DNA of 54,367 bases. Origin: a virus. Its lineage: Duplodnaviria; Heunggongvirae; Uroviricota; Caudoviricetes. The DNA is taken from positions 1 to 54,367 of IMG/VR virus record IMGVR_UViG_2531839448_000005. The stretch is one strand, 5' to 3'. This document shows, one piece after another, positions 13,539 through 37,729 of this stretch (position 1 is the first letter of the stretch; each line of letters begins with the position of its first letter). The notes beneath the pieces were generated by a model. That model was not told the origin of the DNA. It saw nothing but the letters and a program-made list of their open reading frames with translations, and searched no databases. The position numbers and the translations under genes were made by a program.

Positions 13539-13589
13539 GATTCTTTCACCTGTCAGAACAGGGGGCGCACTTCTGCGCCCCCTGAATGA

Positions 13590-14795: not shown

Positions 14796-14809
14796 CGTAT
14801 TTCTCCTGA

Positions 14810-16861: not shown

Positions 16862-16872
16862 AATGACCTCGG

Positions 16873-17609
16873 TTAAAGCGAACGGATGCCCACGCTGACC
16901 AGATGTTCAGACAGATCCAGCTCCGGTTCACCACCATTGACCAGCATCCGGCTCATTGCTGTAAACATCGCAACAGGGCCGTCGATTTTGGCTTCCAGCG
17001 TGGATTTATTCGGGAAGATATTGTCGTTTTTGTCCGGTTTTACCGTAACGTTAGACATCATCCAGTTCATGACCGGATGATTGCTGTGATGGAAACGCCC
17101 GGCATAGACCAGTGATTCCGTTTCCTTCATGGCCTCTGACAGATTGCGAACCGTCTGCGGAACCTCCACCAGCGGTATCCCTTCTTCAGCCAGTGCCAGG
17201 CTGAACTGCATCGCGCTCCACGGGTCAAATCCCAGTTCCCTGAGGTTTTCACCACCAATCCATTCCAGTAAGTCACTTTTTATCTGAGCATGATCGATAA
17301 CATCACCATCCGTCAGAATCAGCTTATCCATCTCCGCCCACTTCCGGTAAAGTTCTGCCTGCTGCCGCGAGCATCGTTCCAGCCGTCCTTCCGGAAGCCA
17401 GAATTTAAAATCGGCATGAACATGCCCGTTATCCGTTCGCCAGAGTTTTGCCGCCGCACAGATATCAATCTTATGAGCAAGGTCAACGCCGACCCACATG
17501 GGATACGTTTTCAGCTCATGTCGTGGGGCAATGTATTCGCACTTCTCCCACTTAATCATGTCCATCCAGGCAGACTCTGCTGTTACCCACACATTCATGT
17601 GTTTGGTAA
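16873..17609 (-). pseudogene. terL: terminase large subunit, C-terminal (nuclease) fragment of the resident prophage; separated from its 5' part by the 15 kb insertion
   Basis: ORF begins MNVWVTAESAW and aligns to the C-terminal third of the intact island terL (shared WxxSNV and KPNK motifs); in-frame stop lies immediately upstream inside the island. Confidence 0.85.
17603..17609. repeat. left junction core TTGGTAA (direct repeat with 32655-32661)
   Basis: identical 7 bp at both insertion junctions; flanks join to an in-frame terL. Confidence 0.6.
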
Positions 17610-17683
17610 GAATATTTCAAGTTTTTTAAAATCACCTGTATATCAATCATTTAACATGAAAAACAGTCTTTATAAATCATCGA

Positions 17684-17704
17684 GCAATACACAGCGCAAT
17701 ACAC
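17684..17704. repeat. tandem GCAATACAC arm-type repeat (copy 1)
   Basis: GCAATACACAGCGCAATACAC; near-identical copy at 32504-32524 just upstream of int. Confidence 0.5.
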
Positions 17705-17891
17705 GTATCTGTATTGTTTTAATGCTGATACACACCGTTTTTTGATACAGTGATTCGACCTACCATCGCGAAGCATTTTTATTTCTTGTGTGTAACAATC
17801 TGACGAGGTGAGCACTCAAAGAGATAAGAGGCAGTAGAAATTTCGATCCCCCCCCTGAATGCAATTTTTCGTATATATATATACAAAACAG

Positions 17892-18046
17892 TGCGGGTTA
17901 TGCGGGTTAGCGGGTTATCTTCGCGTGCTAAGTATTTTTTACTCTTTAATATCAATACGTTAAAAACAACGTATCTAAATATCAGCCAGAATGTAACCCG
18001 CAAGACATTCAAAATAACCCGCAAACACCACTCAAATAACCCGCAA
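17892..18046. repeat. iteron cluster A: 3 direct plus 3 inverted copies of GCGGGTTA(T) flanking an AT-rich spacer
   Basis: TGCGGGTTAT, GCGGGTTAG, CGGGTTATC at 17892-17919; TAACCCGCAA at 17994, 18014, 18036. Confidence 0.6.
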
Positions 18047-18125
18047 AAACATCCCTGAAAGTGGGTGCCGATAATACTGAAAATTTATTCCATTAAATGA
18101 GCATTGTCCTCTCTCATCCATTCCG

Positions 18126-19787
18126 TTACACACCATCAAACGTCGCAAGCCGCTCTTTGTGGCTGTCGCTCATATCGAATGCAAATTCCTCATGCTCTGC
18201 CTGGAATGTGCCAAACGCCATCAGCGCCGCAACGCTCGGGTCTATCTTGTTGGATGATTTTTTCTTGTTCGGCTTGATATTGGCGTTCGCGTCACTCTGC
18301 ATCACAACATTACTCATTGACCAGGCCAGCACCGGATCACCACGATGCACAATCACCTTCCGGTTAACAAAAACTTCGAACGATTTCGCCGCCGGACTGA
18401 AACGAAGGTACGTTTGCGGGAACGGCTCCACCTCAAATCCCGCCCCCTGTAGCTGTGTTCTCAGGTGAGTGGCGTTCCATGTATCGAAGCCCACCAGCCT
18501 GATACTGAAATTCTCTGCATCCACCATGATGTCATCACGGATACGGTCATAATCAATGCAGTCACCCGGTGTTGTGCGTATCCAGCCCGCCTTTACCCAC
18601 TGGCGATAAATGGCGCGGTTTTTATTGGCGGGGTTCTGTAACTGAAATTCCGGCAGATAGTGACGGGAAACCAGCATAATCTTTTTACCGACCGGAAAGG
18701 CATAGCACACGCTGGAAATATCGCTGGTTGATGATAAGTCCAGCCCCACGTAGCACTCCTGCCCGTATAAATCCGCCTCCGCGAACGTTCCGGCGCACTC
18801 CGCCCATGCACCGTTACCCATCCACGGCGTAGCCCCCTGACACCAGATATTGAATCGCTTGGTGAGCATTTCCACCCACTGCGACGGAATACCCCGCGCT
18901 TTCTGGATGGTTGAGGCCAGTTTTTCACGATCGACGGAAACATCGATATTGGGATTCGCCTTTATCCACATCGCCGGATCGTCAACCTCGCTTTCATCAT
19001 CCAGCTCGTAAATCAGTACGAACATGGATTCGTTCACCTCTTCACCATCCAGTATCTGGCAGCAATAGTCGTAGTGTTGTTTACAGGCTGAAACAACGTT
19101 GCTCCCCGATGTGGTGATGGCAAATAATAACCCCTCCGGACGCGCCCCCATTCCCAGTTCAAGCGCGGAATAAACCCCGTTGTCAGGGTGCAGGTGATAT
19201 TCATCTACAATGGCAAGACTCGGGTTTGTACCTTCAATGGTTGCCGCTTTTGCTGCCAGTGGCTTTAACAGGCTGTTGGTTTTCGGGTGTATCACCTTGT
19301 GTGCCTGAATATTTACCCGCTTTCGTAACGGTCGGGATAAAAGGCACATCTGACGCGCATCATCAAACACGATCCGCGCCTGATCACGACTCACGGCGGC
19401 GGTGTAAATATCCTGCTGCCCGTTTTCCATAACCAGAAACCAGTTAGCCAGGATAGCGGCGACCGTGGATTTGGCATTTTTTCGCGGTACTTCAATGAAT
19501 GCGCTGGTGTATTTGCGCCGTCCGGTGGCCTTAACCTTAAAGCCCAGGATGCACGCAAAGGCGAACTGCTGCCACGGCTCCAGCTCAATGGGGCTACCGC
19601 GCATTGCGCCTTTTACGTGCGGACACACCCTGGAAAAGGCAATAAACCGCTCCACGACCTCCGGATCGAACGTGTAAAGGGGGTTTTCAAGGTCAGAAAA
19701 ATACCGTTTAACGGCCTGTTTCAGTCGTTTACAGGCCGTAATTTTGCCGTTTTTTACGCCTTCTGCGTACTCATGCCAGGCGGTCAA
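18126..19787 (-). CDS. terL: terminase large subunit (island-encoded, intact)
   Basis: 553 aa; ATPase and nuclease regions homologous to the split resident terL. Confidence 0.85.
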   Translation of the reverse strand: MTAWHEYAEGVKNGKITACKRLKQAVKRYFSDLENPLYTFDPEVVERFIAFSRVCPHVKGAMRGSPIELEPWQQFAFACILGFKVKATGRRKYTSAFIEVPRKNAKSTVAAILANWFLVMENGQQDIYTAAVSRDQARIVFDDARQMCLLSRPLRKRVNIQAHKVIHPKTNSLLKPLAAKAATIEGTNPSLAIVDEYHLHPDNGVYSALELGMGARPEGLLFAITTSGSNVVSACKQHYDYCCQILDGEEVNESMFVLIYELDDESEVDDPAMWIKANPNIDVSVDREKLASTIQKARGIPSQWVEMLTKRFNIWCQGATPWMGNGAWAECAGTFAEADLYGQECYVGLDLSSTSDISSVCYAFPVGKKIMLVSRHYLPEFQLQNPANKNRAIYRQWVKAGWIRTTPGDCIDYDRIRDDIMVDAENFSIRLVGFDTWNATHLRTQLQGAGFEVEPFPQTYLRFSPAAKSFEVFVNRKVIVHRGDPVLAWSMSNVVMQSDANANIKPNKKKSSNKIDPSVAALMAFGTFQAEHEEFAFDMSDSHKERLATFDGV

Positions 19788-20127
19788 GCTCGTCCTCTTC
19801 CTCTGTTTCCGGTGGATTTCTGCGGCGACTTACCGGGTCAAAACCCAGCAAAGAAGCCATTTTGATCATTATTCTTTCAGCGTCAGCCTTTGCGCTCAGG
19901 GCGGGGTTTCTGCTCTCGCTGCCCTGACTGTTAACAATGCTGAACCCGCGCGTGGCAAGGTCTTCGACGGCTTTGCGGTATATGGAGTAGTTAACGCAAT
20001 ACAGCTCCAGATTGCTCCAGTCGGCGGGGGTAAGGTCTTCCCGTCCGGAAAGCTGGCGCGATTTTTCCTTCCACTGCCTGACCGCGATTTCATCCAGGTA
20101 AGCGGGGGCTTTTGGTGGTCTTGCCAT
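19771..20127 (-). CDS. terS: terminase small subunit (P27-like)
   Basis: start MARPPKAPAYLDE; homologous in outline to the resident terS at 33682-34164. Confidence 0.7.
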   Translation of the reverse strand: MARPPKAPAYLDEIAVRQWKEKSRQLSGREDLTPADWSNLELYCVNYSIYRKAVEDLATRGFSIVNSQGSESRNPALSAKADAERIMIKMASLLGFDPVSRRRNPPETEEEDELDRLA

Positions 20128-20246
20128 GTTCTTTTTTCGCCCAATTATTTTCAAAAAAATTCCCGTGCACAAAAATTTGAGGAGGCGGTCGGTGTCCGGC
20201 AGGGACGGTTTTGTCCTGAAAACCTCCCCCACCCCCTCTGACGGCC

Positions 20247-20423
20247 TCACCAGCGATTGCGAAAACATTCCATGACCTCGCGGTCACGGTCGGTTAATCG
20301 CTTCGCTGTGGTGCGTTCTGTGCGCCCTGTCCTGTTGGCTTTGTGCCCTGTCTCCTGTGTCTTCCATAAGTCACGCTGCCTTATCAGTCCACGTATCAGC
20401 CTGTTTTGCTCCTGTTCAGTCAT
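20247..20423 (-). CDS. hypothetical small protein
   Basis: 58-codon frame between HNH and terS; weak. Confidence 0.2.
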   Translation of the reverse strand: MTEQEQNRLIRGLIRQRDLWKTQETGHKANRTGRTERTTAKRLTDRDREVMECFRNRW

Positions 20424-20856
20424 CATCGCCATACATCCAGTCGTTACGGTGTGCCGCCCGTTCTTCCTGCTCGCGATACATACCCGCCTTACGGTTCGCT
20501 TTCGTGGCTGGATCTTCCCGTGTTGTCTTACGGTTATGGCACGTCTGGCACAATGCCTGGTGGTTCCACTCAGGCCAGAAGAGAACATCACCGCCGCCAT
20601 TGATGGGAATGATGTGATCCACCACAAGAGCTGGCGTATAAATCCCCTTAGCCAGACAACGCACGCATAACGGATTTTTGCTCAGGTACAGGGCGCGGTA
20701 TTTGTCCCACTGTCGGGAATACCCGCGCGCGCGGCGGTGTCCCCGTCTGGCATCCTCTGCACGCCATGCAGCCCGCCTGTGATCTTCGCACTTGCCGGAC
20801 TTCACGCGCTTATTACAGCCCGGCTCAGTGCATCGCCTTAATGGTTGCCACGGCAT
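20416..20856 (-). CDS. HNH endonuclease
   Basis: paired CxxC motifs plus HNH-like core DHIIPINGGG...NHQALCQTCHNRK. Confidence 0.8.
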   Translation of the reverse strand: MPWQPLRRCTEPGCNKRVKSGKCEDHRRAAWRAEDARRGHRRARGYSRQWDKYRALYLSKNPLCVRCLAKGIYTPALVVDHIIPINGGGDVLFWPEWNHQALCQTCHNRKTTREDPATKANRKAGMYREQEERAAHRNDWMYGDDD

Positions 20857-21155
20857 CAGTACACCCCTACATCACGATAAACCGACCAGAGCGCAGAAAT
20901 AGCCATAGGCAGTTCAGACTGCTCCACAGGTGAAACCGCTTCCCTGTTCTCGTACAGGAAAGCGATGTACATCAGGCAACCAACACGTATTGCCGGGGTA
21001 AATTCCAGCCCGTCTTCAAAACGTTTCCCGATATGCTTCTGGCAGGCTTCCAGCGCCGCATCGGTATACATTTTCAGAAGTTCGCCCTCACCTGAGAAGT
21101 CATCAAGGCGAAGATGTGCCCTGACTTCATCAGGTGTAATTTTTTCTTCACTCAT
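20856..21155 (-). CDS. head-tail connector protein (gp6-like)
   Basis: start MSEEKITPDEV; about 100 aa; similar in outline to the resident connector. Confidence 0.55.
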   Translation of the reverse strand: MSEEKITPDEVRAHLRLDDFSGEGELLKMYTDAALEACQKHIGKRFEDGLEFTPAIRVGCLMYIAFLYENREAVSPVEQSELPMAISALWSVYRDVGVY

Positions 21156-22362
21156 CTTTTTCACCTTTAATTTCCACCGTCTGCTTCCATGCCTGGCTGA
21201 ACTCGTCACCACCTTCACGCGGCGGCATCCCCTCACGTTCGCGGGCTTCGTTCGGATTCATGATCCCGTTCTTAATCCCTTTCTCATACGTGGCGTAACG
21301 CTCGGTTGGAGTAGCGCGCAGTAAATCGGCTGAATCAAACTCAACCAGATAACGGGTACCAGGTATGGGAGAAGCCACCAGCAAAGCGGCCTTAATTTGC
21401 TGTTCGAAGTTCGCCAGCCATGGGCGCATTGTCATGGTCAGAAACGCGCGGCTTGCCTCACTGAAATTGCTGTAGGTGCTGTTGCTGTATTCCTGAAGAA
21501 AAATCGGCGACACGTTGAACATCCGGGCGATGTCTTCAATGGAGAAGCGACGGGAGGCCAGCCATTCTGCATCCTGGTTACTCATCCCCAGTTGCTTGTA
21601 ATCCATACCCCCTTCAAGGATTGGCGTTTTTCCGGCATTTTTCGCCCCCTTGTAGCGTTCCAGGGCGTCTAATGCCTGTTTACCTTTCACGCCGTCCAGC
21701 CATTCGCCTGACGTGATAATCCCTGCCGCCATCATGCCATCTTTCATAATGCTGGCTCCGTGACGCTGTTGAGCAAGGCCAAGCCCCAGCGCCTCACGGC
21801 AAATCGTGACAGGGGAGCGCCCCAGAAAGCCATCATCCGAGGCATAGCGGAGATGCAGAACTTCTTCCTGCAAATACGTGCGCACCGTTCCTGTATAGGG
21901 TTCGGTGATGGTATAGCGGTATTTGTGTGCGCCAGTGCGTTCCGGTACAACACACCCCGGCGCATAAGGATGAAGTGATTTTGGCTGACCGTCCCGCCCC
22001 CACTCAATAACCGCATAGGCGTTACCGTTCAGCAGGCAGTGACGCATCATTGTGCGTTTAAACTGGTAAGGTGTCTGGCACGAATTAGGCTGCTCATTCA
22101 GCAGAATATCGACCGGGTGACTGTCCAGCCATTCCCGCGCCTCCCTGCCCTTGTCATTGCGTACCAGATACAGATAACACGGCATCGTGGCCACCGCCTC
22201 AGCGATGACAGAAACCGCGTTCATCACAGCAGGCAATGATTCAGCCGTCCCGGCAGAAACATATTCTCCGGATCCGGTATTCGGTACGCCGGACAGCGCC
22301 AGAAAATCATCAATGGACAGGTTACGCAGATCGCTTTTTTTACGACTAAAAGGCCACCACAT
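21148..22362 (-). CDS. portal protein
   Basis: about 405 aa from MWWPFSRKK; pattern resembles the resident portal. Confidence 0.75.
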   Translation of the reverse strand: MWWPFSRKKSDLRNLSIDDFLALSGVPNTGSGEYVSAGTAESLPAVMNAVSVIAEAVATMPCYLYLVRNDKGREAREWLDSHPVDILLNEQPNSCQTPYQFKRTMMRHCLLNGNAYAVIEWGRDGQPKSLHPYAPGCVVPERTGAHKYRYTITEPYTGTVRTYLQEEVLHLRYASDDGFLGRSPVTICREALGLGLAQQRHGASIMKDGMMAAGIITSGEWLDGVKGKQALDALERYKGAKNAGKTPILEGGMDYKQLGMSNQDAEWLASRRFSIEDIARMFNVSPIFLQEYSNSTYSNFSEASRAFLTMTMRPWLANFEQQIKAALLVASPIPGTRYLVEFDSADLLRATPTERYATYEKGIKNGIMNPNEAREREGMPPREGGDEFSQAWKQTVEIKGEKDE

Positions 22363-22363
22363 A

Positions 22364-22924
22364 TCACAACCCCGCCAGTTCAGCCCAGCGATGACGATTA
22401 TTTCCTGTCGGGCGTAATTCAGGGTGCTGTGCAAACAACGAACGGTGGGCAATCTCCACGCCGGATTCGGGATAAGCAGGCATCGACGTTATCGTGATTT
22501 CACGGAGTTCTGCGGCGGTAACAGTGCGCAGATACGGTTTTTGCGCGATATTCCACTCTTCGCATAATGCGCGAAAGCCAAAGCTCATTCCTGTAATGTC
22601 GCCACGCTCCACCAGCGTAAGCACATCTTTTCCAAGCTGGGTATCAGGCGGTGTCAGTTCAAAACGTAGCCCGGTGTTGTCCTCAGTCAGTACCAGTGTT
22701 CCGGATTTGGTGCGCCCCAGCAGTCGGGTATAGTCATGCTCATACAGGCAGCGCACATCATTACCCGCCGCCAGATAGTCAGCAAAAGCCCCCGGCGTGA
22801 ACTGTTCGCGGAATTCGTCCCAGATAATTTCTGAAAGGCTGTTCCAGCGAACGGCATACCCCACCAGCTTTTTATTGCTGGCGGTCAGTTCAGATGTGCG
22901 GATTTCAAAATCGGTGTTTTTCAT
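22364..22924 (-). CDS. prohead protease (HK97 / peptidase U35-like)
   Basis: 186 aa; GYAVRW, YEHD and GMSFGF motifs. Confidence 0.7.
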   Translation of the reverse strand: MKNTDFEIRTSELTASNKKLVGYAVRWNSLSEIIWDEFREQFTPGAFADYLAAGNDVRCLYEHDYTRLLGRTKSGTLVLTEDNTGLRFELTPPDTQLGKDVLTLVERGDITGMSFGFRALCEEWNIAQKPYLRTVTAAELREITITSMPAYPESGVEIAHRSLFAQHPELRPTGNNRHRWAELAGL

Positions 22925-22978
22925 CGGTGTACTCCATAAAGCTGAAAAAGGAGGCCGCAGCCTCCTCCTTACTCATGA

Positions 22979-24148
22979 CTAGCCAGCTTTCATTTCCAGA
23001 ATTTTGATGGCGTTTGAATCCACCACACCACCGCCCAGATATTTATCCGTGTGGACCTTGTAGAATCCGGGTTCAGTAATGTTGTCCGGTCGGGTGCGAA
23101 TCCCTGTTACATGATCAACGATGAAATAACCACGACTGAAATCGCCAACCGCTAGCGGTGCTTTTCCTGCGCCGATGTCCGGCATGGACTCCAGGCAGAA
23201 AACAGGACGACCAAGCAACATATCCGGCGCACCTTCTTTAAGGCTGTCGCGCCAGATATAATCGCCATTCTCATTTTTCAGCTTCTGTAGTGTCCCTGCC
23301 GTGCCCGAGTTCATCACCCAGACGGCATTTTTGCGGTATTTCGCTTTCAGCTTGTAGAGAATGTCGATCAGTTCGTCCGCTGTAATGGCGGTTCCACTTG
23401 CCGCTACCACTTTTTCAATGGTGCCAAAAGCGCGGGTTTTGTCACTGGTCGCCGCACGGGTGTAAGCCATGAAGCCTTTCGGCTTGCCGTTACCGTCGCC
23501 ATTAACAAAATCATCCTCTTCGGTGCTGGCGAACGTGTCGGCAATTTCGGAGGATAACCAGCCCAGAATATCCACCTCTGAAAAATCCAGGATTTCCTGC
23601 GTGGTTTTCGGGTAGGCGTAGATCGGATTCAGCTTGATGGTTACACGTTCAATTTTCGGGGTGTTGGTTTCACTACGTGCGCTGCCTTCTGTGCCTCGTC
23701 CTACAGTTGCGCCGCCAGTGGAAACCAGTTTCTGAAACTCATTTGATTTTGCGGTCTTCACGGTCGCGATCACGCGCATAACACTGTCATCCTGTAGCTG
23801 GCGCATGACTTCGCGATCAAGCTCAGGAATTACGGTATATCCGCCATCCCTGCCGCTGTCAGTGCTGGTGGACAGTGATCGCACATCTCCGGTTACGATG
23901 TAGTTACGCAATTCATCAGATGATAATTTCTGGATGCCCGTTCCTGGCTTGCTGCGTTCTTCATCAGCCACAGACTCGAGGCGGTAAATTTCTGTGTCGA
24001 GGGAATCGGCTTTTGCACGCAGTTCATCAAACTGTTTGCCCTCGTCATCGTTCAGGCTGCGGTTTTCACTGTCGGCTTTTTCCAGCAGGGATCGCATCTG
24101 GTTTTTCAGGGCGGTTTTTTGCTGGCGGAGTTCGATTAATTTCTTCAT
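22979..24148 (-). CDS. major capsid protein, HK97 family
   Basis: 389 aa; coiled-coil N-terminus; GDGNGKPKGFMAY and DSNAIK motifs parallel the resident capsid protein. Confidence 0.85.
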   Translation of the reverse strand: MKKLIELRQQKTALKNQMRSLLEKADSENRSLNDDEGKQFDELRAKADSLDTEIYRLESVADEERSKPGTGIQKLSSDELRNYIVTGDVRSLSTSTDSGRDGGYTVIPELDREVMRQLQDDSVMRVIATVKTAKSNEFQKLVSTGGATVGRGTEGSARSETNTPKIERVTIKLNPIYAYPKTTQEILDFSEVDILGWLSSEIADTFASTEEDDFVNGDGNGKPKGFMAYTRAATSDKTRAFGTIEKVVAASGTAITADELIDILYKLKAKYRKNAVWVMNSGTAGTLQKLKNENGDYIWRDSLKEGAPDMLLGRPVFCLESMPDIGAGKAPLAVGDFSRGYFIVDHVTGIRTRPDNITEPGFYKVHTDKYLGGGVVDSNAIKILEMKAG

Positions 24149-24422
24149 GAAGGTTTTCTCGTATTGGTTAAGATTCAGGACGTGAAACCAACACGGAGGG
24201 AGCGCCGCCCGACACTCTCGGCATCTCGCAGATCAACCCGGCATCGCGCAGGGGGTCAGGCGGCATTGTGGCGGCTCACGTCTGAGTGCCACACGCCAAC
24301 ATATACATAAAAATCAGTATGTAAACATCAGCCAGAATCACCGAACAACCTGGAACAACCACGAACAAATAATTTACAAAACCTGAAAAAAAGACCTGGA
24401 GAAAATCCAGGCCTTTATCGCT

Positions 24423-24671
24423 TTATTGTTTCACTGGATCCCGCATTCTGCGTCTTATTTTCCACAGATATTCGATCATCGCTTCCACCTGCTCACGATT
24501 GGTTGCGAAAATTTCCCCGGTCAGTGAGCTGCGCAGAAAATCATGATGATCCACAACAAACAACGCATCGGAAGAAAGCAGACGGCGATATTTTTTTGCT
24601 GTCGTGGTTTCCAGATCATCAAAACCATGAAACTTTTTATGTTGCTGGACTTCTTCAAATGTCACTGGCAT
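24423..24671 (-). CDS. hypothetical protein
   Basis: 82 aa ORF. Confidence 0.35.
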   Translation of the reverse strand: MPVTFEEVQQHKKFHGFDDLETTTAKKYRRLLSSDALFVVDHHDFLRSSLTGEIFATNREQVEAMIEYLWKIRRRMRDPVKQ

Positions 24672-25204
24672 GTATCCCCCTTTGCCGCCCGGCGCTGGCG
24701 CTTGTGCTTCTCATTCAGCGCCATCAGCCGCGTTTCTGCCTCCTGCTGTTCCTGTGGTGTCACTTCCCCACATGGCTGGCCTTTCAGGTCGTATCGTACC
24801 CCACCAGCAACCAGGGCGCGGTAATAGCGCGGAGACTGCGCATAAGATGCCAGCGTCGCACGTAATGCCCCCGGCCCGAATGCCAGCCCCCTGACGGCGA
24901 GATCCTGCATCAGGTCGTCGAATATCCCCACCTTAAGCGGCTTCGGTGCTTCCCTGTTGAATAAGTCAGGCCACATCTCAGTGAGGCGGTTAACGCGCCT
25001 GCGGTTTTTGCGCTGGCGTTTGGTCATATGCCGCCACGGTGTCACCCCTGTGGGCTGCCCTTTGCGGCTCTGCTGTGCGTTCTGATTGCCGGGTATCACT
25101 TTATGCGCCGATGTGGTTTTATCCCGCTCTTGCGCCGCCTGCGTCGTTTTCTGCGGCGTGCCGTAAATGCCTTTCGGTTTTCGGTTAATGGTCAGCTTTG
25201 TCAT
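24662..25204 (-). CDS. ProQ/FinO-domain RNA-binding protein
   Basis: LKVGIFDDL...ALRATLASYAQSPRYYRALVAGGVRYDLKGQPCGEVT aligns by eye to the E. coli ProQ N-terminal domain as recalled. Confidence 0.6.
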   Translation of the reverse strand: MTKLTINRKPKGIYGTPQKTTQAAQERDKTTSAHKVIPGNQNAQQSRKGQPTGVTPWRHMTKRQRKNRRRVNRLTEMWPDLFNREAPKPLKVGIFDDLMQDLAVRGLAFGPGALRATLASYAQSPRYYRALVAGGVRYDLKGQPCGEVTPQEQQEAETRLMALNEKHKRQRRAAKGDTCQ

Positions 25205-25368
25205 GCCTTCCCCTGTAATTACTCTGTTCGCTGTTGTGAATTAAAACGGTATGTTATCCCCGTACAGGTCATCGTGCTGGCCTGTCTGTTGTTTTGCCCT
25301 GTTCAGTGCGTCAGTGGCCTGCCCCTGTTGGCCTTTTTTGCCGCCCGGTCGCGCCGTTCTCGCACTGA

Positions 25369-25665
25369 TTACGCTGTCTGCGATGACCTGCCAGCCCTGC
25401 CGCGTTTCGCCGTTCTGCCCTGTCCACTGCTTACCTGCATGTTACCCGCCACGCTCACCAGTTCGCCTTTGCGGTGTTTTGCCAGTGCGTCGGCCTGTCT
25501 GCCAAACGCCAGGACGGATAACCACATCGTCGCCGTTCCGTCATCTGCCTGGCTGCATGGCAGGGGAACCGCCATACTCGCCATCGCCATTTGTGTTCCC
25601 TTGCTGGTGGTCTTTAACTGCGGGTCAGCCACCAGCCGCCCGTAAGCCGCTATCTGTGCTGTCAT
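25369..25665 (-). CDS. SSB-like OB-fold protein (tentative)
   Basis: 98 aa; pattern GRLVADPQL...WLSVLAFGRQADAL...GELVSVAGNMQV resembles an SSB core. Confidence 0.35.
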   Translation of the reverse strand: MTAQIAAYGRLVADPQLKTTSKGTQMAMASMAVPLPCSQADDGTATMWLSVLAFGRQADALAKHRKGELVSVAGNMQVSSGQGRTAKRGRAGRSSQTA

Positions 25666-25728
25666 GCTGTCTGCTCTCCGGTTTTAACGTTGATGGTTAC
25701 GCTTGTTTACACCCTTACGGTGAAATTC

Positions 25729-25854
25729 TGCGGGTTATAATCGCACTTTTGCGGGTTATAACTGCCGTTTTGCGGGTTACGTGCGGGTTATTGATTTCCT
25801 TTTTATTCATACAGTTAATGCACTTATATACATGATAACCCGCATAACCCGCAA
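25729..25854. repeat. iteron cluster B: 4 direct plus 2 inverted copies of TGCGGGTTA(T) flanking an AT-rich spacer; candidate replication origin
   Basis: copies at 25729, 25751, 25771, 25782 (direct) and 25835, 25845 (inverted); immediately 3' of the primase gene. Confidence 0.6.
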
Positions 25855-25875
25855 CTTTTCACCTCACACAGGGGG

Positions 25876-27999
25876 TTAATCTTCTGCCTCAGGCTGGAAC
25901 ATCAGCACGTAAAAAACATGCTGCTTCCCCCCAATTTTGCCGAGCGCCTTTTTCTTGTAACGGCGATCGTTACCCGCTTCCAGCATTCCGGCAGCACTCA
26001 ACGCGCGGGCAAAGTGAGACGGATTAAATCCCTGTGCTATCTCACCCTCAAATACATGCGGGAACGTGTAAAAACGGAACTCGTCATCTTCGTTTCTGAT
26101 ACTCCCCTTTCTGTATCCGGCAAGTTCTTTAATCGATAAATCACGCTCGTCGGTATTGGGCCACGGAAGGTATCTGCTGAATCCGAACGACGCTAAAAAA
26201 GCTTCTGCCTGTTCAACCATCTGTTTAAATTCCCTGTTACCCGTGCCGAACTCCTTCACCCAGGCATTAAAATTATGCTGTATGGCATCGCGGCATTCCT
26301 GCTCATCCCAGCCAGTAACATGACCTGAAAGCACAAGCGCGGCCTCCAGTATGGCAAATCGCTCCCCCACACGGTGAACCTGTTCGCCGTAGCTCTCCGG
26401 TATCAGGTTGCGCCACCGCTCACGGCATGTCCTTACCGTGTCCTTTGCCTCCTGCTGGTGTTCTGCCAGCCATTTAACCCACTCACGACCCGCCGCCCCG
26501 TGATTTTCTGTCCAGGCATCCTTTAACGCGTCTGCGTGCGCCTTTCCGGTGCTGTATTCGTGAAATTGCGTGGCTTTTTCCATCGGAACGTTAAGCAGGC
26601 GGACAAGCTGCCCCGCTTTGACTTTTATCCCCTCCGTTTTGAGGAATGTCTCAACGTCCATTTCTCCGGTGCTGATTGCCACCGTGCGCCAGTGTTTGAT
26701 CTCCCTGTTGCCGCCGTCCTTCGCCCCCTGTAATTTCCCCGAACCGTTAAACAGCGTATAGGCTGACGTGGACACCTCCCGCGCGTTTCCGGCCTGGCCT
26801 ATTTCATCCAGGGGTAAAAGCCCGTCATTGTGTGCCTCTGCTTCGTTGGCGATACCTAACGCTGTGCCGTACCAGGTCAGCCGCTGCGCGTCCGGCTCTC
26901 CCCATAAACTTGATGCGATGTTCTGTGTGGTGGTTTTCCCTGCCGATGACTGTTCGAAAAGATGTACCCCGAAGCCGTCAGCGCCCACCAGCCCGATTAA
27001 TGGTGCGGATAACGATACCGCCACACCCAGCATCATGGACGGATTACCACCAGCCAGCCGCGCAACGGTATCGCGCCAGCCCTCCGCCGTTCCTGCCACG
27101 GAATAGCCATTAACAGCAGCCGTTTTTCCGGTAAACAGGACTGGCTTTTCGCAATCACCAATGACCGAACCGTCCGGCATGATGTACGCGCCAAAATGCC
27201 AGCCCGTTGTTGTGCTTAACTGCCATTCCTCATGGCTTCCGCTTAACTGCATCCAGTCAGCCAGGATAGCCCTGTATTTACCGTTGGTTGTTACGTTCAG
27301 TCCGTGGTCTTTCAGCAACCGCCAGCCGTCACGGTCGCCAATGCCACCGCACGGAACCGCCATTGTGATGACTTCATGGTTTGCTAATTTTTTCCAGCGC
27401 ATCACGCGGTAATGCTCTTTACCGATTGTCCCCGTTCCCAGTAGTTCAAGCGGGGAACATAACCACGTCTCAGGCCGGATAATTTCGCCTGACTGCTTAT
27501 CCACTTTTGGCGTTACCCAGAAAACACCATCGGCGCGACTTTCAACGCGGGGCTTTAATTCATCATCGCCCTGGATTTCTGTGATTTTTTTCTTTAAGGG
27601 CAACACCAGACTTTCCCCGCGCTCGTATTCGTCTTTGAGGCGAGGCAACTGGTCGGATAAATCCGCCGGGCTGATGTCAGTTATCCCCGCGTATTCGTAT
27701 ACGGTCTTCACGCCAGCCACAGCCAGCAACGTGACGATCTGTGTAAGGCTACGTTCAGTGATGTGCCCTGCGCGGTAAACACGCACACACTGACGGCTAT
27801 CATCAATAATTTGATAACCGGTAATATCTTTCAGGTGTTCATCTGACAGAACGACAGGCGGCACATTGTCGGCGGCAATATGCTTACCTGCCCATTCCTG
27901 CCACTCTTTCGCATGGCTCCACGCATCACTACCCGCAAAGATGATAACCTCCGTCATTTTGTCGGCTGGCTGGTGCTTTAAGTTTGGTGCGCGCTTCAT
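25876..27999 (-). CDS. primase / replication protein (P4 alpha-like, DUF927-type)
   Basis: 707 aa; central Walker-like GEPDAQ...SSAGKTT region; adjacent iterons. Confidence 0.6.
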   Translation of the reverse strand: MKRAPNLKHQPADKMTEVIIFAGSDAWSHAKEWQEWAGKHIAADNVPPVVLSDEHLKDITGYQIIDDSRQCVRVYRAGHITERSLTQIVTLLAVAGVKTVYEYAGITDISPADLSDQLPRLKDEYERGESLVLPLKKKITEIQGDDELKPRVESRADGVFWVTPKVDKQSGEIIRPETWLCSPLELLGTGTIGKEHYRVMRWKKLANHEVITMAVPCGGIGDRDGWRLLKDHGLNVTTNGKYRAILADWMQLSGSHEEWQLSTTTGWHFGAYIMPDGSVIGDCEKPVLFTGKTAAVNGYSVAGTAEGWRDTVARLAGGNPSMMLGVAVSLSAPLIGLVGADGFGVHLFEQSSAGKTTTQNIASSLWGEPDAQRLTWYGTALGIANEAEAHNDGLLPLDEIGQAGNAREVSTSAYTLFNGSGKLQGAKDGGNREIKHWRTVAISTGEMDVETFLKTEGIKVKAGQLVRLLNVPMEKATQFHEYSTGKAHADALKDAWTENHGAAGREWVKWLAEHQQEAKDTVRTCRERWRNLIPESYGEQVHRVGERFAILEAALVLSGHVTGWDEQECRDAIQHNFNAWVKEFGTGNREFKQMVEQAEAFLASFGFSRYLPWPNTDERDLSIKELAGYRKGSIRNEDDEFRFYTFPHVFEGEIAQGFNPSHFARALSAAGMLEAGNDRRYKKKALGKIGGKQHVFYVLMFQPEAED

Positions 28000-28310
28000 T
28001 TTGCCTTTCCCCGTTCACGAATAATTTCACGTACTGCCTTAATGCGTTCCATTCCTGTAACGCGCATGATTCTGTCGATGTCGCTTAATTCTGCTGGTGG
28101 TGCTTTACTTACCAAGGTGAACTCCCTGTCAAAGCGCATATGTGACGACACGCAGGGATGCGCATAACCTTCGCGGATATAGGTCACACGAAAATCATCG
28201 ACGGTTTTGATCGTTATCGTGCTGCCGTATTTATCCTGGAAAATATCGCCGGGGCGGATTTCAGGCCGAGCGGGGCCGCTGGCAGTAAAGCCAGAATTTT
28301 TCTTTTTCAT
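27996..28310 (-). CDS. hypothetical protein
   Basis: 104 aa ORF overlapping the primase start. Confidence 0.4.
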   Translation of the reverse strand: MKKKNSGFTASGPARPEIRPGDIFQDKYGSTITIKTVDDFRVTYIREGYAHPCVSSHMRFDREFTLVSKAPPAELSDIDRIMRVTGMERIKAVREIIRERGKAK

Positions 28311-28315
28311 GTTTT

Positions 28316-28564
28316 TTACTCCAGAGGCAGCTTTTTAGCGGCGAGCTCAATATCAGATGTCAGAGAAACCTGTGTATTTGCCAGGTCTAACAACAAAGAA
28401 ATAAGAATTTCTTCTCTGCTATCGGATTTATCGGTGCTAAGGCTGTTCATCCACATATTGACGACTTCCCTGATTTTTTTCGCAGAGTGCAGGGCTTCAA
28501 ATGCCAGGTCTTCAATATCATGTTTATTTCGCATAATCGCCCCCGCCATTTTCACAATCAGCAA
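28316..28564 (-). CDS. hypothetical protein
   Basis: 82 aa ORF. Confidence 0.3.
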   Translation of the reverse strand: MLIVKMAGAIMRNKHDIEDLAFEALHSAKKIREVVNMWMNSLSTDKSDSREEILISLLLDLANTQVSLTSDIELAAKKLPLE

Positions 28565-28769
28565 TCAGGATGGCTTTTGCCTCATTCAGCGCCATATCAG
28601 CACTAAATTGCATAACAGCCAGTGAGTGAGGAACGAAAGCCCCGGCATATTCTGTTTCGCTGGTGGCGTGCTTATGCGCCTTGTCTGCGATAACAGAAAT
28701 ATCAATCAGCGCGTGCATCAGCGTTTTGATGGCTTCGGCGGCTGCGTCCGGACGGGTGTTATTGCACAT
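28524..28769 (-). CDS. hypothetical protein
   Basis: 81 aa ORF. Confidence 0.3.
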   Translation of the reverse strand: MCNNTRPDAAAEAIKTLMHALIDISVIADKAHKHATSETEYAGAFVPHSLAVMQFSADMALNEAKAILIADCENGGGDYAK

Positions 28770-29073
28770 GGCGCACCTCCTGACGAATACGGGCAGCGAA
28801 TACCATCACGCAGCCAGCCGGGGATTGCTGGCGTGCTTCCTGTTCGCTAGTGGCCTCAATGGTAATCACACGCGGTTGTGCCGTGCTCAGGGCGATAAAA
28901 CGCCAGATGTATTTATTCAGGTTGTGCGAGTCCCGCCCTTGCGGGTGTGTGGTATGATTTAACATAGCTACCTCGATAATCTTGCTATCGTTGGTGGTTA
29001 GAAGCCCGGTTAGTGTTAGCGCACTGCCGGGTTTCGTCGTTTGTATTTCAATAAAACCATTGGTGTGTTTCAT
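28759..29073 (-). CDS. hypothetical protein, first gene of the island leftward operon
   Basis: manual call: ATG at 29071-29073 inside the operator motif, 105 codons; the 393 aa track ORF is a read-through artefact. Confidence 0.35.
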   Translation of the reverse strand: MKHTNGFIEIQTTKPGSALTLTGLLTTNDSKIIEVAMLNHTTHPQGRDSHNLNKYIWRFIALSTAQPRVITIEATSEQEARQQSPAGCVMVFAARIRQEVRHVQ

Positions 29074-29150
29074 GTTATTTTGGAGTGAAACACACGTCAA
29101 GCCTTTTTTGTATTTCTTTTTTGTGTATACTGAAACACACCAAATTTGAG
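29050..29150. promoter_or_regulatory. divergent promoter region with three copies of operator-like motif TGAAACACAC / GTGTGTTTCA
   Basis: copies near 29055-29068, 29083-29096 and 29138-29150 between divergent genes. Confidence 0.5.
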
Positions 29151-29161
29151 GAGTTTCAGTT

Positions 29162-29467
29162 ATGGCGACTACCAACAAAAACGCTAAATCACAATTGACC
29201 ACCGTCAGAGTCCCCCACGATGTTATGGAGGGCATGGAATCCGTAAAACTGGACGGCGAAAGCAACGCCGGATTCATAGTAACCGCCATGCGCGGTGAGA
29301 TCGCCCGCCGCCAGGCAGAAGGAAGCGGAGAAAATCCCCTGGTTTCTTCGCTCGATGCACTGGCGCAGGTGGAAAAAATTGGAGTCAAGGCTGCCGAGGA
29401 GATCGGGCAACTCGTCACCGTCGCGCGTGAAGAACTCCAGCGACGCAAGGTCAAAGAGCAGGAATAG
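29162..29467 (+). CDS. hypothetical protein, candidate island regulator
   Basis: 101 aa ORF divergent from the island operon, directly downstream of the operator triplet. Confidence 0.4.
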   Translation: MATTNKNAKSQLTTVRVPHDVMEGMESVKLDGESNAGFIVTAMRGEIARRQAEGSGENPLVSSLDALAQVEKIGVKAAEEIGQLVTVAREELQRRKVKEQE

Positions 29468-29524
29468 CCACTATCAGCGCCATAGTTTGAGGAACGCAGG
29501 CGCATTGCTTTACAGGACAGCACC

Positions 29525-29704
29525 ATGAGCGACACAGAATCAACCAAAACACCATCACCAACTCGTAAGAGACGACGCAAAAATATAGCGCATGAACATG
29601 AATCAGAAAGATTCGCACCTTGTTCGTTTGCTCTTGAGAAATTCCTTAAAGAGCACAGGAAAAAGCTCTCGTTGCAAACCTTGGAACGAACCAAATCTGA
29701 CTGA
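29525..29704 (+). CDS. small basic protein
   Basis: manual 59-codon ORF MSDTESTKTPSPTRKRRRKN; below the track length cutoff. Confidence 0.25.
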   Translation: MSDTESTKTPSPTRKRRRKNIAHEHESERFAPCSFALEKFLKEHRKKLSLQTLERTKSD

Positions 29705-29770
29705 TCACATTGCCCACCAGCCGCAAATGTGGCATTGTTGGTGATGCTTTTGTTTTCCCTTGTTCCCACT

Positions 29771-29800
29771 GGCGACCCTTTTGCGGTCGCCTTTGTTTTG
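29771..29800 (+). terminator. rho-independent terminator
   Basis: GGCGACC/GGTCGCC stem followed by TTTGTTTTG. Confidence 0.6.
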
Positions 29801-29892
29801 CCTGTTATCCGGCAATAGTGGCGCTTCGTCACCTGTCTGATATAATTCCACAGCTTATATTCATTTTTTGCGCAGTAGGTTAATTGTTCGCA

Positions 29893-29926
29893 AGGGCGCT
29901 CCGGCAACGGGGCGCTTTTTGTTTTT
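29893..29926 (+). terminator. rho-independent terminator
   Basis: GC-rich hairpin followed by TTTTTGTTTTT. Confidence 0.5.
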
Positions 29927-30084
29927 ACCCACCAGCACAATAAAAATCTTCATTTTCCATTTTTGTAAAATTTCATGCTTTCCGGACGACTGGTCATATG
30001 TCATTTTTTAGCAGAAGATTTTGCCTTGCTGGTGGGTAGCTTCCCGGTCAACACGATGTACCGTATAATCAACACCGCGTGTGG

Positions 30085-30663
30085 TTACTGAATACGCTCA
30101 CCAAAGTAAAACTCAGGCTGGTATTCACGTATCAGCCTTTTTTCTTCTTCCTCCAGCTCACGCTTTTTGCGCTTACATGCCTGTAGCTCCCTCCCCTTCT
30201 CACTGGCACTTATCTGGTATTGCTCTTTGCGGCGGGAAAAATCCTGTAATGCGCCCCACGGGATACCATAAGCCCCCGTTTTTCTGATACCCGGTATCAC
30301 ATTTCTGAATACCCAGTTACTGAAACGATGAGCAAATGTGCCAGGCGTCGTTGCTTTGCGGCTGCGGGCTATTAGTTTGTAGAAACCTGACTCGGAGATA
30401 ATGCTCATATTCTGATTTCCTCCGGGGGTGTAAGTTAAATTTACTCCCTTTTCGTCATCATCAAGCATCTGCAACGCCGTACGCGAATTGGTCAATTCCA
30501 GCGCAGCACAAACATCCTTTGCAACAAACCACGGATCGCCGTTTAGATACACCACACGAACATCCACGCCATCAAAGCGCAGAACGACCAGATCACGAAT
30601 ATCACAGAATTTTTTCACATGACGTGCGTCACCCTTGCCCGTCACGGCAATATTTTTATTCAT
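30085..30663 (-). CDS. Bro-N domain protein (antirepressor-like)
   Basis: N-terminal Bro-N-like pattern RVVYLNGDPWFVAKDVCAAL...ESGFYKLI...FSNWVFRNVIPGIRKTGAYG. Confidence 0.65.
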   Translation of the reverse strand: MNKNIAVTGKGDARHVKKFCDIRDLVVLRFDGVDVRVVYLNGDPWFVAKDVCAALELTNSRTALQMLDDDEKGVNLTYTPGGNQNMSIISESGFYKLIARSRKATTPGTFAHRFSNWVFRNVIPGIRKTGAYGIPWGALQDFSRRKEQYQISASEKGRELQACKRKKRELEEEEKRLIREYQPEFYFGERIQ

Positions 30664-30720
30664 TGCTTTTTACCTCACATACAAAAAACCCCGCATTGCG
30701 TGGTGCGGGGTTGTCGGTAA

Positions 30721-30999
30721 TTACTTATTGGCGTTTTTGTATGGGCTGTTTACTTCCTTTACTCCTGGCGGATGCATAACCCACCAGAGCACATCAGAGA
30801 GCAACCAGGAAACAGACACTTTCCCTAAATGAGCACGAGCAGGAAATGCTCCCTCCTGTTCAAGTACCCAACGTCTGCTTCTTGAAAGCCCGGTACGATT
30901 GGCACACTCATGTTCGCGTATACGGCGATCATACGGTTCGCCATGATCTTTCAGAATCTGAATGCGTTCTTCGGGTGTAGGATAAATAAATTTTTGCAT
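30721..30999 (-). CDS. AlpA-like small regulator (tentative)
   Basis: start MQKFIY; small basic protein adjacent to alpA. Confidence 0.4.
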   Translation of the reverse strand: MQKFIYPTPEERIQILKDHGEPYDRRIREHECANRTGLSRSRRWVLEQEGAFPARAHLGKVSVSWLLSDVLWWVMHPPGVKEVNSPYKNANK

Positions 31000-31062
31000 A
31001 AAAATATCACCTATAAAAAAACCCGCCAAAAGACGGGTTGATTATATCTCATTTAATTTAGC

Positions 31063-31296
31063 TCAGGGTTTCCATTCACCTTTTACCCATTCCAGCACCT
31101 CAGATAAGCGCCAGACTTTTGTTTGTGGGCCAATACATATTTTTCGTGGAAATTTTCCTTCCTTTTCAAGTAACGATCTGTGTCTCCTGCCAAGAGCGGT
31201 TAACCATGCACATTCATCCTCCTTAATCATCCTGTCGATTGTTTCATCATTTTCAAGTTCTTCACGCGTAACTATTTGAATCATTACTGTCACCAC
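31063..31296 (-). CDS. alpA: AlpA-family transcriptional regulator
   Basis: 77 aa ORF directly upstream of int; small basic winged-helix-like protein. Confidence 0.55.
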   Translation of the reverse strand: MVTVMIQIVTREELENDETIDRMIKEDECAWLTALGRRHRSLLEKEGKFPRKICIGPQTKVWRLSEVLEWVKGEWKP

Positions 31297-31329
31297 TAAT
31301 TTGCTTATTCAGATAGTCGTACCACCAGT

Positions 31330-32483
31330 TCATAGCTTCTTTTTTCTGTCCATATACTGGCTTCTGTTATAAACCCCGGCAACACCGCCTAATGTGTGCC
31401 CAAGCAACTGTTCAACCACATTATGTTCAAAACCATGATCACTTAGTTTTGTGGCAAACACTCTTCGCATATCATGCGCCGTCCATTTCTCCGAGTGTTT
31501 CATCCTTTTCCATGTCTTACCGATAGTTACGCTTGCCGTACACTGACGCATATCAAACCCAATCACATTTTCTTTGTTACCTGTTATTTTTTTAACGTAA
31601 CTAACCAGTTAAACATGCCATCAGGAATCGGTCTGATTATTTCCCTGCCATTTTTGCTATGATCAGCGGGAACGCGCCATAATTTCTTATCAAAATCCCA
31701 CTCTACCCAGGACGACAGTAATACTTCTGACAGTCGACAACCAAAAACTACCAGGAAACGTAAAATAATTCGGTTTTCATATGATAATTCGTGATTGTCA
31801 TAATCAGTATTAATACTTCGCCATAAATCTCTGATTTCATCATCTGTTAAAACCCTGCTTCTTCGCGCAGACTTTTTTCCCACATCACAGACCTCAAGAT
31901 CATCAATTTCATGACTAATCGCGTATTTTCTTACCCTACAAAATTTAAGCGCCTGTTTTGATATACGCAACAAAGCTCCGGCCTGTACAGGTGCTACTTT
32001 TTTTATTTTGTCAAAACACTTAATCCACATAGATATAGAGCAATCACTAAGTGGTACATGACCAATCACCGGATAAATATGTTTACCAAAGCACTGCCTG
32101 ATATGTTCTGCTCCCCTACGCTTATCCATTGCATAATTATCAAGCCAGTATTCAAGTGCCTCACGAACGGTAACAGGTTGCAAGGTGGCTTCCCGTTCAA
32201 TTTTTATCTGAATCCGTGGATCTCTGCCCTCCGCAAGCCAGGTTCGACACTGATCGCGCATCTCTCTCGCTGATTTGAGACTCAGATCAGGATATTTTCC
32301 AAGTGTCAGCCAGATGGGCGCGGTTCCCCTTCCCGCCAGTCTGTAAAAGAAAACAAAACTAACACATCCGTATTTACTGACCCGTACCGAAAGCCCGTTA
32401 CCATCAGCGATGGTTTCCTGCCTCTCACTCCTGCGCCCAAGCAGGGAACGAAGTTTTTTATCGCTCAGTTTGTTTAGCGCCAT
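31330..32483 (-). pseudogene. int: tyrosine integrase (P4-like), frame-broken at an A7 tract near 31580-31590
   Basis: 311 aa N-terminal ORF plus 78 aa C-terminal ORF carrying HxxR...Y catalytic region (HDMRRVFAT...GVYNRSQY); adding one A rejoins the frames. Confidence 0.8.
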
Positions 32484-32503
32484 GTGATTTATAACCCGTT
32501 TTT

Positions 32504-32524
32504 GCAATACACAGTGCAATACAC
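32504..32524. repeat. tandem GCAATACAC arm-type repeat (copy 2)
   Basis: GCAATACACAGTGCAATACAC just upstream of the int start. Confidence 0.5.
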
Positions 32525-32654
32525 AAATGATGAAAACAGCCAGAACCTTCCAGAAAAAACAAAAACGACGAACAAGAAAAAATCTTTTTCTTTCATTTGG
32601 TTACTAAAAAAATCAGGACAGGTCGCACTGTTGTTACGGCGTGATGTTACTTTC

Positions 32655-32661
32655 TTGGTAA
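32655..32661. repeat. right junction core TTGGTAA
   Basis: direct repeat of 17603-17609. Confidence 0.6.
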
Positions 32662-33682
32662 AAAAATTCACCCGCGCAGAGACCTGTTCTTTCGCTTTTT
32701 TCGCCAGGCGACGCAGATCATCCCAGCGTTTACAGATGCCCAGGCCGGGATTCGCTTTCTGCCAGACCGTTTCATCAAACGGATCATCTCCCTCATCGAG
32801 GGTGTAAATAATCGCAAAGTAGGAGTCGTCTTTTACAGCGCCCTCCACATCGCTGTTATAGCCACGCAATACCTTGATGGCGTAATCACGCTGCTCGTAA
32901 CAAATCCCTTCCTTGTTAAACCCTGCCGTGGTGATACCAAATAACAGGGACTGCAGGCGGGCACCGGTTGCCGTTTCCAGAACGTCCCACACGTCGCGGG
33001 TTTTATGTGCATGCAGCTCATCAATAATGGCGCAGTGGATGTTCAGACCATCCAGGTTGTTTGCATCCGAGGAAAGCGGTTCAAATTTTGATGCGCTCTG
33101 CTCCTGGTAAATCGCCAGCTTGTTGAAATCAAACAACCGCCCGAGTGTCGACCGGGCTTTTCTGACCATATTTTTGGCGTCTTCAAACACAATTCTGGCC
33201 TGGTCACGCGTGGTGGCGGCTGAATACACCTCAGCACCGCCTTCACCATCTGCCCCCGTCATATACAGGCCGATACCCGATGACAGAGTTGATTTTGCGT
33301 TTTTACGGGCGACTTCGTTGTACGCCGTCCGGAACCGGCGCACCATCACCGGACGTCCGCTGCCATCGCTGCGCATGACAACTTCCCCGGTCTCTTCATT
33401 CACCAGCGGAATGACAAAACCAAAAATATTAATGAGGATAAATACATGCCAGTCCATCAGTTCAATGGGCTGGCCTGCCAGCGCCCCTTTTACATGAGGC
33501 ACAAATTTGTAGAAATTCAGGATGTGCTGCGCACGGGGTTCACTGAAATAAATCCCCCGCTCTTCGCCGTACTTCAGATCATCAAGAAAACGCTGGCAGG
33601 CCAAGCGGACAAATTCGCCAGCAACAATTTCTCCTGCAACAACACGTTCGGCGTAGCGGATCCCGTCAGCCACTTTTGCCAT
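32655..33682 (-). pseudogene. terL: terminase large subunit, N-terminal (ATPase) fragment of the resident prophage
   Basis: ORF reads terL-like sequence to ...ARVNFFTKK then 53 unrelated codons inside the island; Walker-type motifs present. Confidence 0.85.
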
Positions 33683-37154: not shown

Positions 37155-37419
37155 GGATGCATTTCCAGGTTTTGCTTAATATATGATTAATCTCAATGTC
37201 ATGGTGTTATTTACAACACCAGAATGATGCATCATCGGCCCCTGCCAGAAACATTGCAAATCTCTACCAATAATGCACCATTCCGGTGACGTAAAAAATG
37301 GCACTGGTGCTGCAAGCGATATCACTCCTTACAGTACAGGGCGAGGTAAGGAGTCAGGAAAAACGCCCCACATAAAATGTGTCAGTGCCTAACACAACCT
37401 AGTATCAATCGTCCTCTGC

Positions 37420-37494
<75 letters not shown>

Positions 37495-37497
37495 ATA

Positions 37498-37573
<76 letters not shown>

Positions 37574-37575
37574 AC

Positions 37576-37652
37576 TGGACCGCCACCGGGGACTCGAACC
37601 TCGCACACTCAACTTAAAGGGTTGACGCTCTTTCCTGATGAGCTAGTGGCGG
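37576..37652 (-). tRNA. tRNA-like, anticodon loop CCUUUAA (putative UUU/Lys, non-canonical C33)
   Basis: 77 nt; 7 bp acceptor stem, TTCGAGT T-loop, CCA end; one mismatch in the T stem. Confidence 0.45.
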
Positions 37653-37653
37653 C

Positions 37654-37729
37654 TGGTGGCCCTTGCTGGATTTGAACCAGCGACCTGGCGATTATGAGTC
37701 GCTCGCTCTCACCACTGAGCTAAAGGGCC
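37654..37729 (-). tRNA. tRNA-Ile2/Met (anticodon CAU), ileX/ileZ-like
   Basis: 76 nt cloverleaf, anticodon loop CUCAUAA, close to E. coli ileX as recalled. Confidence 0.8.

Follow-up and report, generated by a model that had tools for sequence, protein, structure and literature searches.

The island integrase gene in the stretch of DNA analyzed here (the window, bases 1 to 54367 of draft contig AFEB01000037.1, assembly GCA_000225245.2; 54,367 nucleotides) does not run in one frame, which raises the question of whether the bacterium carries an integrase pseudogene or whether the break is a homopolymer miscall. A sequence-only reading of the locus had offered the same two options. They proved to be the right pair, and the evidence leans towards a miscall for this assembly.

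A single unbroken integrase reading frame is absent from the window, where two 1-nt deletions (31587-31593 and 31340-31345, referred to as sites 1 and 2) interrupt the gene (Table 1). The N-terminal open reading frame (ORF) stops inside TTAAAAAAATAA (31584-31595, minus strand). Comparison with intact orthologues, a check that had been proposed with the sequence-only reading, places exactly one A fewer in the window at site 1, where the A8 form reads TTA AAA AAA ATA ACA GGT (LKKITG). With A8, the integrase frame enters the ORF carrying HDMRR...LLGH...GVY, so the ORFs and the alignment confirm the earlier claim that the N-terminal ORF ends in ...TLKK-TAA and that one more A joins it to the C-terminal part with the Tyr. 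After site 1, this frame reads on ...ITGNKENVIGFDMRQC... through HDMRR, LLGH, and GVYNR. Site 2 lies 247 nt downstream of site 1, and in the orthologue alignment the deletion there swaps the conserved integrase tail KKEAMNWWYDYL for KKKL followed by a stop. The single lesion first described thus stands at site 1, while the A7-to-A6 change at site 2 of the same gene had been overlooked.

The N-terminal ORF encodes the Arm-DNA-bind_3 domain as well as the first half of the catalytic domain, in which the Arg of GCRLSE and the Lys of HSKNGRE lie. In Pfam searches, the PF00589 match of the window integrase is split, the N-terminal ORF matching profile positions 2-80 and the C-terminal ORF positions 112-170. 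In an intact orthologue, residues 6-92 match PF13356 (E = 1e-17) and residues 211-377 match PF00589 (E = 1.4e-18). The motifs GCRLSE, HSKNGRE, HDMRR, LLGH, and GVYNR are all readable in the window frames and are conserved in Xenorhabdus orthologues; from knowledge of the family, we take them to supply the R...K...HxxR...H...Y residues. By both its profile match and its catalytic residues, the window integrase is a tyrosine recombinase.

Table 1. Coordinates of the split integrase gene, the island around it, and the interrupted genes of the helper prophage.
Feature	Position	Strand	Remarks
N-terminal integrase ORF, 299 aa	31584-32483	minus	ATG start; ends ...LVTLKK-TAA
Stop-to-stop form of the N-terminal integrase ORF	31584-32519	minus	ORF listing
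Site 1, A7 tract (T7 on plus strand)	31587-31593	minus	A8 in every intact orthologue; loss of one A shifts the integrase out of frame
Premature TAA stop made by the site-1 frameshift	31584-31586	minus	ORF end
Site 2, A6 tract, A7 in relatives	31340-31345	minus	Second 1-nt deletion; cuts off the conserved C-terminal tail
Rest of the integrase gene: HDMRR, LLGH, catalytic Tyr in GVYNR, tail AMNWWYDYL	31262-31583	minus	Spread over two further frames
Helper-embedded, capsid-forming PICI, ~15 kb	17610-32654	minus	Near-identical annotated copies, Pfam tags, empty site in ETEC1747
att core TTACCAA, integrase end, inside prophage terL	32655-32661	minus	TTGGTAA on plus strand; matches the published att identity
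att core TTACCAA, far island end	17603-17609	minus	TTGGTAA on plus strand
Doubled TGTATTGC arm-type motif of HE-PICI attP, upstream of int	32504-32523	minus	0 expected by chance
Second doubled TGTATTGC motif, near the other island end	17684-17703	minus	0 expected by chance
Helper prophage terL, N-terminal fragment	32655-33682	minus	Interrupted by the island
Helper prophage terL, C-terminal (nuclease) fragment	16873-17609	minus	Interrupted by the island
A6 tract breaking the helper prophage integrase	52968-52973	plus	A7 in ETEC1747, ETEC4085, and CV839-06

The island is a phage-inducible chromosomal island (PICI). Its gene order, read from the annotation of near-identical copies in 36 complete Escherichia coli genomes, is int, two AlpA-type HTH genes, Bro-N, Icd-like, DUF4222, DUF927 primase, SSB (frameshifted), and ProQ, followed by major capsid protein, protease, portal, connector, HNH, TerS, and TerL. 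In all 36 of these genomes, the island lies between N- and C-terminal fragments of a prophage terL. ETEC1747 has the same prophage by tRNA-Ser and mtfA, free of the island and with an intact terL of 1758 nt. Window positions 10949-17616 align to it with 2 mismatches and 0 gaps and positions 32655-54367 with 5 mismatches and 6 gaps, and the two alignments share a short overlap block with the core TTGGTAA (17603 and 32655). The doubled TGTATTGC copies are co-oriented and lie ~78-88 nt and 135-144 nt from the att cores, close to the distances of 81 and 132 given in the published study of helper-embedded PICIs (HE-PICIs), where this doubled motif is diagnostic (PMC10111431). In its supplement, the E. 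coli 042 and UMNF18 copies are placed at site A_Terminase_1_246 with att identity ttaccaa, and the integrase gene region of the window is 99.6-99.8% identical in DNA to these copies (99.6% for 042). With its terL site co-oriented with int, its att block, its flanking doubled motifs, and an integrase that belongs to the clade by DNA identity, the island is a known HE-PICI of site group A:Terminase_1:246 (Tommasini, Mageeney & Williams 2023, NAR Genom Bioinform; PMC10111431). The earlier description of an "island" that would be locked in place by integrase inactivation therefore undersold the context, as the element is a helper-embedded PICI inside prophage terL.

The helper prophage is lambdoid and sits at tRNA-Ser/mtfA; by identity with ETEC1747, it carries four tRNA genes (Gly, Thr, Lys, and Ile) at ~37419-37728, between the Q antiterminator and the lysis genes. 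In the island, the SSB gene has a 1-nt deletion at ~25405-25429 (CACTG-CTTACC versus CACTGGCTTACC). This deletion is common to GPT24-02, where the gene is annotated as frameshifted, and to contig L050, which indicates that the SSB lesion is real and inherited. Near 32583, E. coli 042 (L002) has an extra homopolymer base upstream of int (T7 versus T6 in the int orientation, A7 versus A6 on the window plus strand). This base probably explains both the 445-aa integrase called in RefSeq and the remark "reannotate term_int fusion" in the supplement of the HE-PICI paper (PMC10111431).

Tract lengths in other assemblies bear directly on the two integrase deletions. In 36 of 36 complete E. coli genomes with the integrase gene, the match spans 1263 nt, compared to 1261 nt for the window query, and every one of these that we examined has A8 at site 1 and A7 at site 2, as does every copy that we examined in clean assemblies. 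The window integrase haplotype is the same as that of GPT24-02 (A8/A7) except for the two deletions, which are limited to the haplotype of this assembly. We found the truncated integrase protein on 10 to 15 contigs, compared to more than 1,200 for intact variants; three of the latter, among the 40 of 350 cluster members that we examined, are on 335, 660, and 282 contigs. The protein spanning the occupied terL junction is indexed in 946 blocks. Natural A7 off-alleles of the HE-PICI integrase are thus rare, at roughly 1-2%. Independent assemblies of the same strain that span the island integrase were absent from the search, in which the closest lineage contigs (L021, L023, and L026) cover only 49.3-54.4 kb, and a scan of genome contigs gave only two distant relatives.

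The two shortened runs differ in how they are distributed. At site 1, A7 is present in six assemblies that match one another at 100% identity for as much as 12.4 kb and in which it is the sole homopolymer indel relative to their relatives, and it occurs on further haplotypes in L011 and L014. Since A7 is found in these clean, identical assemblies and in L011 and L014, the A8 run at site 1 appears to be a genuine mutational hot spot, and tract length there varies among close haplotypes. In total, A7 is seen on five haplotypes, a count that includes the window itself, one error-prone assembly, and Logan runs that state no platform. At site 2, the truncated product was found only in this assembly among the indexed contigs, and the A6 allele was seen only in this assembly and in homopolymer-compressed ones. 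These compressed, long-read-like assemblies repeat the integrase lesions, with A7/A6 in L006, A8/A6 in L037, and A7/A7 together with two more shortened A-runs in L036.

The integrase deletions are part of a wider excess of private indels in this contig. Compared to near-identical complete genomes, the window has ~13 private indels versus ~16 SNPs, and most of the indels are shortened A/T runs. The closest island, that of GPT24-02, differs by 4 SNPs over ~14.5 kb and by five 1-nt deletions in the window, all in A/T runs (17659, 17776, 17962, 31340, and 31587); the three outside the integrase cluster within 300 bp. At these five sites, four relatives with different SNP backgrounds (L003, L004, L048, and L050) agree with one another against the window. 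Of the three A/T runs with a length of 8 in relatives, two are shorter in the window, as are several of 6 to 7. Compared to the near-identical, island-free prophage of ETEC1747 (39.7 kb), it has 12 SNPs and 9 indel events, and at the four of these sites that L003 covers (34202, 36806, 37126, and 40383), L003 and ETEC1747 agree against the window. Two complete genomes showed no homopolymer indels between them over the same 12.5 kb. SNP counts from pairs of complete genomes are only partly useful for calibration, as most of their SNPs lie in recombined patches. We also considered a mismatch-repair mutator as the source of the indel excess and rejected it, since the 10 transitions to 7 transversions in the SNP spectrum of the window carry no mutator signature.

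Some private changes in the contig lie outside A/T runs. The tail-tip gene gpJ is split at 3434-3471 into ORFs of 451 and 670 aa by two 1-nt insertions and a mismatch in a GC-rich patch (GCCTGGCCCGCCGGGTGG versus GCCTGCCCCCGGCTGG in ETEC1747); among all indexed contigs, this pair of insertions, which counts among the indel events versus ETEC1747, was found only in this assembly. At position 628, ~30 nt into a prophage tail-fibre gene, there is a private 1-nt deletion (CACCG-CTTTC versus CACCGTCTTTC).

The accession prefix AFEB comes directly after the batch AFDQ-AFEA, which was sequenced with 454 Titanium FLX and assembled with Celera (PMC3491183). This adjacency suggests that AFEB01 was also a 454 assembly; we found no mention of the AFEB accession or the assembly identifier in the literature, and the platform is taken from the neighboring batch alone.

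Taken together, these data make it likely that the integrase frame break is a homopolymer miscall in an old draft assembly. We prefer a miscall because both A-runs of the integrase and three further A/T runs of the island are short in the window alone, while its nearest relative is only 4 SNPs away. Since A7 is naturally rare (~1-2%) and this assembly shortens several A/T runs, a miscall is several-fold likelier than a real allele. The break exists in the deposited sequence and would most likely be absent from the bacterium, with the integrase A8 run under-called as A7 and the downstream A7 run under-called as A6 during sequencing or assembly. 454 sequencing is prone to errors in homopolymer length, and its chemistry would be the probable source of the indel excess. 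The real gene would then encode an intact 407-aa tyrosine integrase, which hundreds of other E. coli assemblies carry. As in published HE-PICIs, this integrase would be expected to function in vivo by recombining the TTACCAA cores at 32655-32661 and 17603-17609, and excision of the 15-kb satellite would be expected to rejoin the helper prophage terL.

The sequence-only reading had cited two other sites, the G/GT run and the prophage integrase, as showing the same one-base-short pattern. This is true of the sequence, but it does not support miscalling, because the alleles are shared with clean assemblies. Many independent assemblies share the A6 tract of the prophage integrase. The haplotypes that carry it have 96-100% identity with the window, many of them only 96-98%, and the A6 product appears in 43 indexed blocks of the collection; it is a real, widespread, polymorphic allele. 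With A7, the prophage integrase ORF opens to 341 aa, yet PGAP flags the ETEC1747 copy as frameshifted. The G/GT slippery run, which lies on the minus strand at 10754-10760 where tail chaperone gene G ends, is A7 in the window and also in ETEC1747 and ETEC4085, where PGAP labels G a pseudogene, and is A8 (A_AAA_AAG-TAG) in GPT24-02. An A7 run has one A fewer than the canonical -1 arrangement requires and puts the T frame at +1. The G/GT A7 is likewise a real shared allele. We therefore rejected both sites as examples of miscalling, as both of their states are common to clean independent assemblies.

These same sites weigh on the side of a genuine pseudogene, which we regard as unlikely for this strain but as the strongest of the alternatives. 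Here, slippage from A8 to A7 would have occurred in this strain as in other lineages, and the downstream A7 run would have decayed afterwards. The 299-aa protein would keep the arm-binding domain and lack HxxR, His, and Tyr, so that excision would not occur, the island would be fixed, and the helper terL would stay split. That two other one-base-short window sites turned out to be real shared alleles favors such a history, and because the helper integrase has a real frameshift and G/GT and SSB have shared lesions, the composite element may already be decaying. Site-1 A7 is also found on at least three clean haplotypes, among them that of the six identical assemblies, which have no other homopolymer anomaly. 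In addition, across A/T runs of at least 6 nt in the whole window, private changes affect 3 of 73 coding runs and 7 of 34 intergenic runs (Fisher P = 0.011), and all three of the coding changes sit in the two integrase genes. Sparing of other coding sequence looks more like selection on real mutations than like random error and is unexplained by a pure error model; AT-richness was considered as its cause and set aside, as the trend towards lower local GC at changed runs is weak (P = 0.08).

Against a pseudogene, the truncated allele is rare and occurs in 0 of the 36 complete genomes, and the window integrase haplotype is otherwise identical to that of an A8/A7 genome. Two slippages in one gene and three more within 300 bp, versus 4 SNPs, are far above natural indel-to-SNP ratios, and a mutator spectrum that might account for them is absent. 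Finally, the site-2 allele is limited to this assembly and to homopolymer-compressed ones.

It is also improbable that the window copy is one natural off-allele of an A8 run that, as a natural hot spot, repeatedly switches the integrase off. Were this so, the satellite would be frozen in the helper terL and helper DNA packaging would be permanently disabled, and -1 slippage at A_AAA_AAA-TAA could possibly keep up a trickle of excision. Least probable of all, and very doubtful, is that the A7 allele yields some full-length integrase by -1 ribosomal frameshifting or transcriptional slippage, or that A8/A7 acts as an on/off switch for excision. Both lesions do sit on in-phase -1 slippery heptamers (TT[A AAA AAA] TAA at site 1 and AG[A AAA AAG] at site 2), a -1 shift at each gives back exactly the intact protein sequence, tract length differs between close integrase haplotypes, and the E. 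coli Lys-tRNA slips on A_AAA_AAA and A_AAA_AAG heptamers at a low percentage without stimulators. However, the heptamers are in phase at both sites because one A has been removed from runs starting at codon position 3, and the in-frame A8 integrase is the overwhelming norm, with 36 of 36 complete genomes in frame. The Xenorhabdus orthologues, at 66% identity, lack the A-runs (they read LLLHKSTK and YIEQKRSAL). We detected no stimulatory structure downstream of site 1 or site 2 (z = +1.35 and +0.16, respectively, versus shuffles), and no Shine-Dalgarno-like element was visible upstream of the integrase heptamers. A programmed frameshift was rejected because the arrangement is not conserved, downstream structure is lacking, and the runs are missing in the Xenorhabdus orthologues.

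The finding is an ordinary one, and the island context has already been described. If the frame break is an artefact, it serves only as a caution that homopolymer frameshifts in older 454 drafts or nanopore-only assemblies can fake pseudogenes in mobile-element integrases, and such false pseudogenes would mislead surveys of "locked" islands. If it is real, its effect would exceed that in an ordinary island, since the satellite sits inside prophage terL and a dead integrase would both immobilize the satellite and leave the helper terminase gene in two parts. It would still add just one more case of decay to a known family of mobile elements.

Compared to known systems, the changes in the window resemble 454 or nanopore homopolymer miscalls in that they are single-base, lie nearly all in A/T runs of 5 to 8, are mostly shortenings, are private to one assembly, and are repeated by homopolymer-compressed assemblies. 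They are unlike such miscalls in being under-represented in coding sequence, and the platform itself is only deduced. The integrase sites share with dnaX- and IS3-type -1 sites (A_AAA_AAG and A_AAA_AAA) the same heptamer, in phase and with a stop directly after it, but the frameshifted form in the window is not conserved and lacks a stimulatory structure, and its orthologues are in frame.

The window island can also be compared with the HE-PICIs of site group A:Terminase_1:246 (PMC10111431). As in that group, it lies inside and co-oriented with the large-terminase gene of a prophage, has TTACCAA att sequences with doubled TGTATTGC near both ends, and runs in zones from int-AlpA through Bro-N and replication to captured late genes. 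In the supplement, the E. coli 042 copy is entered as Eco33.15.A_Terminase_1_246, and this assembly was not found among the entries in its accessible part. The window differs from the group in that its deposited integrase has two 1-nt A-run deletions. The island also resembles the capsid-forming PICI (cf-PICI) family, as summarized in de Sousa et al. 2023 (PMC10085698), in having its own major capsid protein, prohead protease, portal, head-tail connector, HNH, TerS, and TerL and in being ~15 kb long with no tail or lysis genes, as judged from the RefSeq annotation of near-identical copies and from Pfam tags. It is unlike that family in its integration site, which is a late gene of a prophage instead of a chromosomal attB. 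Other E. coli assemblies (L041-L047 and L049) have this capsid and packaging module, including a 389-aa capsid protein of identical sequence, at chromosomal rcnR-thiM in cf-PICIs that carry a different, 406-aa integrase. This sharing of a late module between elements with different integrases suggests that the integration module has been exchanged between helper-embedded and chromosomal satellites.
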